Shown: positions 7,026 through 17,993 of the stretch, one piece after another
How the letters are laid out: every line of letters starts with the position of its first letter
How positions within the stretch are numbered: the first letter of the stretch is position 1
Assembly (NCBI GenBank): GCA_016926735.1
Contig: JAFGOA010000145.1
Span: 1-38,537 of the forward strand
Direction: 5' to 3'
Length of the DNA stretch: 38,537 bases
DNA from: Promethearchaeota archaeon
Lineage (GTDB): Archaea > Asgardarchaeota > Lokiarchaeia > Sigyniarchaeales > SOKP01
Made by a program: the position numbers and the translations under genes
The notes under the pieces: generated by a model
What the model was told of the DNA's origin: nothing
Database searches by the model: none
What the model saw: only the letters and a program-made list of their open reading frames with translations

Positions 7026-7664
7026 TTTATTCAGATTTAGAGATAAAAAAATTATTTAATTCTGTAATGAATAAATTATAAATTAATAAAAAATTGATGA
7101 ATTGAATTTTAACTATTGGATAACTAAAAATATTGATATAATACGATTTATAATTTTATTACATTATTTTAGAAAAATTAATATCTTTATATTAAATCCA
7201 TAATGATTATCATTTTTATACAAGAAAACAGAAATTCTTTCAGTATTAGTCTCAAATTTGATTTTAATGATATTTTTCGGATACTCTTTTAGGAACTTAT
7301 CTAAAAACATCCAATTCCAATAACTCATATTTTTATCGTTGTATAATAAATAATAAAAGACAATCTGATGTAGATATTATGTCTCATATATTAAAAATGA
7401 TTTTTCTTTTTATCCTAATAAAAAAAAGCAATTTTTCTTTATACAAAAAAGAAATTCAATACAGATTTATTTTTTAATACCGAAAAAATTTTATTTTTAA
7501 AAGTATTTTTATTATTAACTATCAAAATTAAAGATTTATTAAATTTATTAGATTTAAAATAGATTCATATTAAAAAAAATTCAAGATTATTACATAAGAT
7601 AATTAATCAGATTTTTTGTTTATTTTAATAAAATAGAAGTAAATTTATTAATTGTTATTAGGAA

Positions 7665-8886
7665 GTGATCAAGATTACCAATAATGATTTTACTACAAAA
7701 TATATAATAGAAGCAGAATTTAATGTTAAAGGTATAGTAGAAAAAAGTGATATTGTAGGTGCTATCTTTGGACAAAGATAAAAAAGCATCTTTTTTAATC
7801 GTTTAAACAGAAGGCCTCCTTTTAGATTTAGATTTAAGAGATCTTCAAAAATCCGGAAGAATAGGACGTATTGATGTTGAAAATATTTCAGAAGAAGGAA
7901 ACTCAAAAGGTATTATTCACATCCCTTCATCCTTAACTAGAAAGGAGACTGCCTTATTAGCAGCTACAGTTGAAACTGTTTCAAGAGTTGGCCCATGTGA
8001 AGCAAACTTTATACTTAACAGTATAAAGGATGTTCGAGAAACAAAAAGAGCGAAAATCATTGAAAGAGCTGCAGAATTATTAAAAGAATGGGATCAAGAA
8101 TCTTTAGAAGCCAGTGAGATTGAGGAAAAAATAGATACAGATATTAAATTAGGAGAAATCATAGCTTGGGGCCCAGATAATTTACCCGCAGGTCCAGATA
8201 TAGATTCAGATTCTGAAATAATTATTGTAGAGGGTCGAGCAGACGTACTTAATTTATTGAGAATAGGTGTAAAAAACACAGTTGCAGTTCAAGGAACAAG
8301 CGTTCCGAAATCAATTATCAATTTAACACATAAAAAAGAAACTGTTATAGCATTCCTCGATGGGGATAGAGGTGGTACTTTAATACTTAAAGAATTATTA
8401 CAAATAGCTAAAATAGATTATGTCGTTAGAGCTCCTGAAGGATATGAAGTAGAGGAATTAACTAGAAAACAAATGATTAAAATTCTACAAAACAAAAAAC
8501 CAGCAAAACTAGATTTTTTTTCTGAAGAAGAATCCGTAAAAAAAGAGAATATAGATAATTTTACTGGAAAAGAAAAGGTTTTATTCAGATTTTTAAAAAA
8601 GTTAAAAATTAAAAAGAAAGAATTTGTAATGGATCAAATTAGAGAGATTGGAACTGGAATGACTATAGGTCTTGATCAAGATCTAAATAAACTATTTGAA
8701 CTTCCTGTTAGTGAGCTATTTGATAATATAAATCAATTTAAAGATTCTAAAATCCTTATAATTGATGGTATTTTAACAAGTCGCCTTCTTTCACAATTAA
8801 TGCGTATTAATATAAAGATGATAGCATGTAAAAATAAAGAAGAAGACCTTAAAATCTCAGATAAGATTCTTGTATATTATTTTTAA
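7665..8886 (+). CDS. dnaG: Archaeal DnaG (TOPRIM-containing, exosome-associated), split: join(7665..7775,7807..8886), ~396 aa
   Basis: Exon 1 (GTG 7665, start tentative) ...TKYIIEAEFNVKGIVEKSDIVGAIFGQ; exon 2 TEGLLLDLDLRDLQKSGRIGRIDVE...RVGPCEA...LPAGP...IIVEGRADVLNLL...FLDGDRGG...EVEELT. Exon 2 is stop-free from 7807 and in frame with the 8257..8886 ORF of the track. Confidence 0.93.
7776..7806 (+). other. Candidate 31-nt bulge-helix-bulge-type intron in dnaG mRNA
   Basis: AGATAAAAAAGCATCTTTTTTAATCGTTTAA sits between the Gln and Thr codons of GQ|TEG. Central helix GGAC(7770-73)/GTTT(7801-04), AAA bulges at 7774-76 and 7805-07, inner hairpin 7777-7800. Cutting after the 2nd base of each bulge restores the frame exactly. 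Confidence 0.8.
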
Positions 8887-17892: not shown

Positions 17893-17993
17893 TGCGTCCA
17901 CCGGGATTCGAACCCGGGTTTCCAGAAAGATAGCAAAAATCTATCGTTTCGCTGGCTTGGAAGGCCAAAATCCTACCGCTAGACCATGAACGC
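17893..17993 (-). tRNA. tRNA-Gly(TCC) with a 30-nt intron in the variable loop (intron 17920..17949, position 45/46)
   Basis: Acceptor GCGTTCA/TGGACGC-A, anticodon arm TTGGC-CTTCCAA-GCCAG, T arm CCGGG-TTCGAAT-CCCGG. Intron junctions: central helix CCAG/CTGG, bulges CGA and AAA, inner hairpin GATAG/CTATC. CCA not encoded. Confidence 0.92.

Follow-up and report, generated by a model that had tools for sequence, protein, structure and literature searches.

We analyzed a 38,537-nucleotide (nt) stretch of DNA (the window: contig JAFGOA010000145.1, positions 1 to 38,537, of GenBank assembly GCA_016926735.1) from a Promethearchaeota archaeon, in which the dnaG gene is interrupted by a 31-nt insert. 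This insert is very probably a genuine archaeal bulge-helix-bulge (BHB) intron, that is, an intron of the tRNA type, inside the coding sequence of dnaG. The evidence in hand comprises the sequence, its conservation, covariation, the selection on exon 1 and the genes for the splicing endonuclease; cleavage and ligation are inferred. An initial annotation of the window had proposed that the dnaG mRNA is spliced by the tRNA machinery. Inserts at the same site in related genomes, covariation in the helix and the encoded splicing endonuclease (EndA) support this proposal, and we regard such splicing as highly likely. The source genome (G000) is a metagenome bin of 3.88 Mb in 238 contigs, with a completeness of 99.3% and a GC content of 26%.

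The dnaG insert and its predicted RNA motif

The dnaG gene spans positions 7665-8886 on the forward strand, and its coding sequence is split between GAIFGQ and TEGLL (Table 1). When exon 1 is read through without splicing, AGA TAA directly follows the CAA codon, and translation of unspliced message would end after 38 residues. The frame of exon 2 possesses no in-frame start codon for 150 codons, the first being the TTG at 8257. The initial annotation had described an insert of 31 nt between CAA (7773-7775) and ACA (7807-7809), with a TAA in frame and a frameshift, and all of these coordinates are correct. The DnaG of about 396 amino acids (aa) that it expected after removal corresponds to the joined product of 37 + 359 = 396 aa. 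The 209-aa open reading frame (ORF) to which it found the gene truncated was reproduced, with the TTG at 8257 as the start, in a list of ORFs read from their first start codon (a list, not the output of a gene caller).

From 5' to 3', the elements follow in the order exon strand of the central helix (H), 3-nt bulge, intron helix (h'), intron strand of H, 3 nt and exon. This predicted helix topology is that of a pre-tRNA (BHB-type) intron. We compared 41 distinct copies of the dnaG insert for helix, stop codon, length and bulges, and counted the pairs in an alignment of 34 distinct intron-bearing junctions (33 distinct rows). Helix H was paired in 132/132 cells of the 33 rows and in 41/41 copies. 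The wobble base of the Gly codon and its intron partner occurred as five pair types in the 33 rows (C-G 19, A-U 6, U-G 5, G-U 2 and G-C 1). The initial annotation had suggested looking in relatives for a same-site insert with compensatory base changes; the inserts are there, and the five pair types are such changes. The covariation score was 0.127 against a shuffle mean of 0.075, and none of 500 column shuffles reached 0.127. As a control, the partner columns were slid by 1-3 positions, which left only 27-50% pairing. RNAalifold, run without an imposed structure, predicted the same central helix. Pairing reached 91% in the closing helix of h' and 96% in the inner hairpin that the longer forms possess.

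In 41/41 copies, a true 3-nt bulge (bulge 1) separates H from the hairpin (AAA 23, AAT 8, AGA 8 and AAG 2). At the second site, the 3 nt directly 3' of H are AAA in 38/41 copies. The inserts are 29-43 nt long, most lengths are not multiples of 3, and an in-frame stop codon lies within the first 3 codons in 41/41 copies. The EndA rule, cleavage after the second base of each bulge, gives the protein-defined GQ/TEG junction in every copy examined. The outer exon-exon helix (h) of the strict hBHBh' form was not found: 55% of its cells are paired, and one position never pairs. Since no conserved outer helix lies behind bulge 2, the predicted dnaG motif is of the relaxed HBh' or bulge-helix-loop (BHL) type, an accepted subclass whose cleavage requires an EndA of broad specificity. 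The hairpin at 7777-7800, the AAA at 7774-7776, the GGAC/GUUU helix and the AAA at 7805-7807 lie exactly where the initial annotation had set them; its cut rule excises exactly 7776-7806, in agreement with the boundary in the relatives, and its description of the outer helix as weak and the motif as relaxed accords with the counts above.

In the proposed mechanism, the exon strand GGAC (7770-7773) of the pre-mRNA would pair with the intron strand GUUU (7801-7804). The intron hairpin (7777-7800) would stack on this central helix, so that 3 nt remain unpaired as a bulge (7774-7776) and another 3 nt as a loop (7805-7807). An (alpha-beta)2 EndA would then cut after the second base of each, between 7775 and 7776 and between 7806 and 7807. 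An RtcB-type ligase would join the exons to GGA CAA/ACA GAA, from which the 396-aa DnaG would be translated. The junction expected in the spliced mRNA is TTTGGACAA followed directly by ACAGAAGGC, and the 31-nt intron would be released, probably as a circle.

Only one dnaG match was detected in the 99.3% complete genome; an intact second dnaG, which the initial annotation had named as a possible sign against an intron, was not found by the genome search. Contigs from two other studies (salt marsh and marine sediment) are identical to the window, with no gap, over positions 7642-7976 and 7660-8051. The exon 1 frame is open and its GTG start is kept in most of 81 distinct loci, intron-bearing and intron-less alike. 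In the last 24 codons of exon 1 from 34 intron-bearing species, the nonsynonymous (pN) and synonymous (pS) values were 0.11 and 0.73 (pN/pS 0.16). In the last 10 codons, 13/30 bases vary and only 1/10 residues varies. Thus, exon 1, conserved despite the stop codon behind it, appears to be translated as part of DnaG.

In 9 of the 81 loci, with and without the intron, the conserved GTG is missing and no ATG, GTG or TTG stands at the usual place (L009, L017, L022, L040, L045, L070, L074, L077 and L088). L088 is cut by the contig end, and the other eight may use a different start codon.

Distribution and history of the insert in Asgard archaea

In the NCBI taxonomy, Promethearchaeota is a Loki-type phylum in the Asgard kingdom, to which Thor-, Odin- and Heimdallarchaeota likewise belong. 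With exon 2 as the query, 40 related genomes yielded 30 loci, and tblastn with both exons was then combined with extraction of the junctions. In the same family, 15/24 loci (the own genome included) carried an insert (29-40 nt) placed precisely at the Gln/Thr codon boundary, and the other 9/24 had an uninterrupted GQ/TEG junction. In two sister families, the insert was detected in 0/6 dnaG loci; the cultured Asgard strains fall in sister families where no dnaG intron was observed. Among contigs named Promethearchaeota, 3 of 71 loci were left out as partial; of the 68 analysable loci, 30 had the insert and 38 had none.

A pattern search of 400 Asgard genomes detected an interrupted dnaG in 55 genomes, and the reversed-pattern control gave 0 hits. 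The uninterrupted junction pattern was found in 268 of the 400 genomes, both forms in 1 and neither in 78. Within the same family, 51 of the 134 other genomes had the interrupted form. A second family of the same order is represented by a single genome, which has the dnaG insert. Furthermore, a family in another class is represented by two genomes (G398 and G399), and in both the same codon boundary of dnaG contains an insert of 32 nt. Its sequence is unrelated but its geometry is the same, with a paired helix (GGCC/GGUU). Either this insert is ancient, or it was gained independently at this site.

The single genome bin matching both the interrupted and the uninterrupted pattern is G264. This may be a mixture of strains, a duplication or a polymorphism caught in mid-change.

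Whole genera are fixed, or nearly so, for the dnaG intron (3/3, 5/5 and 6/7 genomes), and two large genera are mixed (18/42 and 15/54). A maximum likelihood tree of the exon 2 proteins was made by a quick IQ-TREE run with 85 rows (37 with and 48 without the intron). The tree needs at least 7 state changes, of which only 2 are forced by well-supported branches, and the numbers of gains and losses are soft because the tree search was a quick one. The earliest-branching lineage of the family has the dnaG intron, and the intron of the second family shares sequence with that lineage. For these two reasons, the distribution points to an old gain followed by repeated precise losses, as proposed for the cbf5 intron (PMC2738675, in the part of that report available to us).

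Splicing machinery and alternative explanations

Two genes of the EndA family (PF01974) were found in the genome, one on contig 33 (203 aa) and one on contig 100 (202 aa). The alpha subunit gave its best match with the Aeropyrum pernix enzyme (3p1z_B, E 7e-36). It aligns without gaps through the Crenarchaea-specific loop, and a Lys and an Arg correspond to K44 and R46. By reading of the sequence, it keeps the catalytic Tyr, His and Lys; the second paralogue is without the catalytic His. According to the accessible parts of two reports, the Crenarchaea-specific loop and K44 confer cleavage of BHL and other non-canonical introns (PMC3241643), and the Asgard EndA is an (alpha-beta)2 enzyme with this loop (PMC5829648). 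The host EndA, judged by its sequence, is of the type able to cut relaxed motifs. ARAGORN in intron mode called introns in 19/52 tRNAs of the genome, some of these calls being doubtful.

Several points weigh against an EndA-spliced intron. Splicing is inferred and was not observed in RNA; no RNA run was listed for positions 7400-8400, and two metatranscriptome runs of the source study gave no contigs, which is a blank and not a negative. The fold of this copy by itself was not above shuffles (minimum free energy -13.1 kcal/mol, z -0.63), and the case therefore rests on the comparison among relatives. This copy has a weak central helix (two G-U, one A-U and one C-G pair) and, unlike a canonical BHB, no outer exon-exon helix; strict structure filters applied to the genome did not recover dnaG. 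About 105 nt of coding sequence precede the BHB, and splicing would therefore need to outrun translation or to coexist with it. Finally, canonical RtcB (PF01139) gave 0 hits in this 99% complete, 238-contig assembly. The missing RtcB is likely an assembly gap, because RtcB is present in 23 of the 25 genomes searched (22/24 relatives), including 3/3 of the same genus.

An in-frame stop codon with a frameshift in a metagenome-assembled genome could mean that dnaG is dead or decaying and that the insert is a random indel. However, this is the sole dnaG copy, both exons are intact in the 34 distinct intron-bearing species, the pN/pS of exon 1 is 0.16, and the insert always lies at the same phase-0 boundary with the helix paired in 41/41 copies, where random indels would scatter. 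We consider a pseudogene extremely unlikely. The chance of an assembly or sequencing artefact is close to nil: the source is a 238-contig metagenome bin, but the identical insert occurs in contigs of two other studies, and same-site inserts of differing sequence occur in 55 separately assembled genomes. Two further kinds of element were rejected. Group I and group II introns have a catalytic RNA core of hundreds of nucleotides, whereas the inserts are 29-43 nt long, and no Rfam intron family was detected in the window. An intein does not agree with a stop within 3 codons in 41/41 copies and with lengths that are mostly not multiples of 3.

The insert might also be kept in the mRNA and be dealt with at translation, by ribosomal bypass (hopping) or by synthesis of two separate polypeptides. 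Archaeal transcription and translation are coupled, and known bypass take-off sites have an immediate in-frame stop codon, as do all 41 copies here. However, the insert varies in length (29-43 nt) and sequence while the exon-intron helix is conserved in BHB geometry, exon 2 has no opening start codon, and the codons flanking the insert (CAA or CAG on its 5' side, ACN on its 3' side) do not form an evident take-off and landing match. This explanation is highly improbable. We give a small chance to removal of the insert from the RNA by enzymes other than EndA and RtcB, for instance a different nuclease working with a different ligase. It would fit the relaxed motif and an assembly in which canonical RtcB was not found. 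Nevertheless, the geometry agrees exactly with the EndA cleavage rule in every copy, an EndA of the broad-specificity type is encoded, RtcB is present in all genomes of the same genus, and 29-43 nt is far below the size of group I or II introns.

As for the surroundings, ORF translations were read as an ArsA/Get3-like ATPase upstream of dnaG and as SecE-like and FtsY-like genes downstream. A homing endonuclease adjoining dnaG was rejected on this reading, which was made from ORF translations with no family search. A very AT-rich stretch of 640 nt (7026-7664), without long ORFs and without an Rfam match, lies between the ArsA/Get3-like gene and dnaG. The window also contains a 101-nt tRNA gene at 17893-17993 on the reverse strand (Rfam 53.9 bits), which default ARAGORN missed entirely and which in intron mode is called as tRNA-Gly(tcc) with an intron.

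Further inserts, known systems and implications

The initial annotation had pointed to dnaG only, and in this respect it needs correction, as dnaG is not the only gene of this kind in the genome. Four more genes carry BHB inserts of 29-30 nt, namely those for aIF2-gamma, an AMP/thymidine-phosphorylase-like protein (deoA family), NadE and a POR-gamma-like protein (Table 1). Same-site inserts were counted in 41 genomes of the family, G000 included. The deoA-like insert forms a textbook BHB with a 4-bp helix and a 10-bp hairpin and was found in 13/41 genomes, from 9/13 genera. That of aIF2-gamma, found in 10/41 genomes, shows a strong outer helix between the exons (fold -20.9 kcal/mol, z -3.4) and, in the copy of this genome, one G.A mismatch in the central helix. 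In both of these introns, the central helix covaries with the synonymous wobble base of a His codon. The nadE insert was detected in 2/41 genomes, G000 and one genome of another genus, whose copies are distinguished by a compensatory pair; the pattern had no match in the three genomes of the same genus.

The two halves of NadE match adjoining parts of the Pfam profile (2-144 and 144-242 of 242). For the deoA-like gene, the N part gave a match to the N-terminal domain family, and the match of the C part to the a/b-domain profile begins at position 11. With aIF2-gamma and POR-gamma, only the C part matches the family (from profile positions 43 and 29), and the evidence for the split comes from the junction motifs. 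In aIF2-gamma, the N-terminal exon (L141: 1551-1967, reverse strand) encodes a helix-hairpin-helix (HHH_5) domain before the GTPase, an unusual fusion.

The genome scan, which combined BHB geometry with ORF joining, was very noisy at 26% GC (32,413 raw and 1,394 filtered hits). A list of frame breaks held 569 loci, and a combined score gave mostly junk. Recognisable genes came only from the strict or energy-filtered versions of the scan. Since the strict scans missed dnaG, the five genes are a lower bound and not a census. Among the blastn-short matches listed for the 31-nt intron in G000, looked at as a sign of a mobile multi-copy element, no second copy was found.

Table 1. Coordinates of the dnaG elements (window positions) and of the four other interrupted genes (positions within the extracted loci of G000). 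Intron and motif assignments are predictions.
Feature	Location	Strand	Remarks
dnaG exon 1	7665-7775	+	GTG start + 36 codons, ending SDIVGAIFGQ; CAA = 7773-7775
Central 4-bp helix H, 5' strand GGAC	7770-7773	+	Gly codon + first Gln base; pairs with 7801-7804
Bulge 1, AAA	7774-7776	+	predicted 5' cut between 7775 and 7776
Candidate 31-nt intron	7776-7806	+	in-frame TAA at 7779-7781; frame shifted
Intron helix h'	7777-7800	+	GAU/AUC closing pairs, 7-bp A/U stem, CAU loop (GAU-AAAAAAG/CAU/CUUUUUU-A-AUC)
Central helix H, 3' strand GUUU	7801-7804	+	partner of GGAC
Bulge or loop 2, AAA	7805-7807	+	predicted 3' cut between 7806 and 7807
dnaG exon 2	7807-8886	+	TEGLLLDLDLR, from ACA 7807-7809; 359 codons, stop 8884-8886; Toprim domain
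AMP/thymidine-phosphorylase-like (deoA family)	contig 50, L139: 103-651 + 673-1689	+	30 nt, DKHS(T)/GGVPGNK
nadE	contig 143, L140: 451-963 + 145-450	-	30 nt, GYFTKYGD/GGVD
POR-gamma/iorB-like oxidoreductase subunit	contig 4, L142: 668-838 + 848-1399	+	30 nt, BHB geometry, ILGSE/MHGLAQ
aIF2-gamma	contig 18, L141: 1548-1967 + 337-1551	-	29 nt in P-loop GHVDHG/KTTLV

In one relative (G015), the rtcB gene is itself broken by 29 nt at GGVGY/DINCG, with an in-frame TGA (L108, contig 222, about 330-360). By eye, this insert forms a clean BHB with a UUGG/CCAA helix and a 9-bp hairpin; the message of the ligase would itself need ligation.

A wider interpretation would take in dnaG, aIF2-gamma, the nucleoside/AMP phosphorylase, nadE and POR-gamma, together with rtcB in the one relative. 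The family might hold a population of BHB mini-introns of about 30 nt in essential coding genes, quickly gained and lost and spreading as mobile elements into exon sites that supply half of the splicing motif, and Asgard archaea might routinely splice mRNAs with the tRNA machinery. The mobile spread is proposed because distant lineages have inserts at exactly the same sites (dnaG in another class, nadE in only two separated genera). We advance this interpretation tentatively and consider it rather doubtful.

The comparison with known systems follows the accessible parts of the cited reports. In the established case, a BHB intron interrupts the pre-mRNA of cbf5 in Desulfurococcales and Sulfolobales (Watanabe 2002; Yoshinari 2006; Yokobori 2009, PMC2738675). 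The dnaG insert resembles it as a short stop-containing insert in a coding sequence, with a BHB-like fold of which half comes from the exon, and removal depends on EndA (a hetero-oligomeric enzyme for cbf5; presumably EndA for dnaG). Ancestral gain with precise lineage-specific losses and mis-annotation by gene callers are further common features. In contrast, cbf5 is a crenarchaeal case and dnaG an Asgard one, in which splicing is predicted from sequence. Moreover, the dnaG genome has at least 4 further such genes, whereas only cbf5 was confirmed in PMC2738675. The relaxed tRNA introns of Crenarchaeota and Asgard archaea (PMC3241643, PMC5829648, bioRxiv 10.64898/2026.10.13.758758) share the motif class (a central helix with one true bulge, the second bulge being replaced by a loop) and an EndA of the same type with the specific loop; the dnaG genome likewise makes heavy use of tRNA introns. 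They differ in that the host RNA of the dnaG intron is a messenger. The exon half of its motif is constrained by codons, and covariation in dnaG therefore runs through synonymous sites. A BHB intron in the HVO_1309 mRNA of Haloferax volcanii likewise involves EndA acting on an mRNA (PMC7714728); that intron lies in the 5' untranslated region, whereas the dnaG intron interrupts the frame and its removal would be needed for the full-length protein.

PMC7714728 (2020) gives the crenarchaeal cbf5 (2002) as the only archaeal coding sequence described with tRNA-type splicing, and the 2026 preprint on Asgard tRNA introns, in its accessible text, mentions neither mRNA nor DnaG. In the full-text literature, with subscription journals and preprint supplements outside the scope of the search, no BHB intron of dnaG or of an Asgard mRNA was found. 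The initial annotation, which knew of cbf5 as established and of no case in dnaG or an Asgard mRNA, is in line with this search, in which cbf5 was the only coding-sequence case. The candidate dnaG intron is an addition to the known class of EndA-spliced pre-mRNA introns, and one of several here.

In the HAC1/XBP1 splicing of eukaryotes, an mRNA is cut at stem-loops and rejoined by tRNA ligase (RtcB in animals), and the frame is changed. That system differs from dnaG in its nuclease, which is Ire1 and not the tRNA endonuclease, and it serves as a regulated stress switch.

Public Asgard annotations contain core genes in truncated or split form, among them that of a translation initiation factor, and gene-content and phylogenomic analyses are therefore distorted. 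Splicing of mRNA by EndA and RtcB in Asgard archaea can now be tested with a few defined junctions, and the patchy, precise presence and absence of the inserts makes it tractable to study how introns were gained and lost before the spliceosome. In this lineage, the finding bears both on the quality of annotation and on the prehistory of mRNA splicing. If the mini-intron interpretation were true, the closest prokaryotic relatives of eukaryotes would routinely splice mRNAs with the tRNA machinery.

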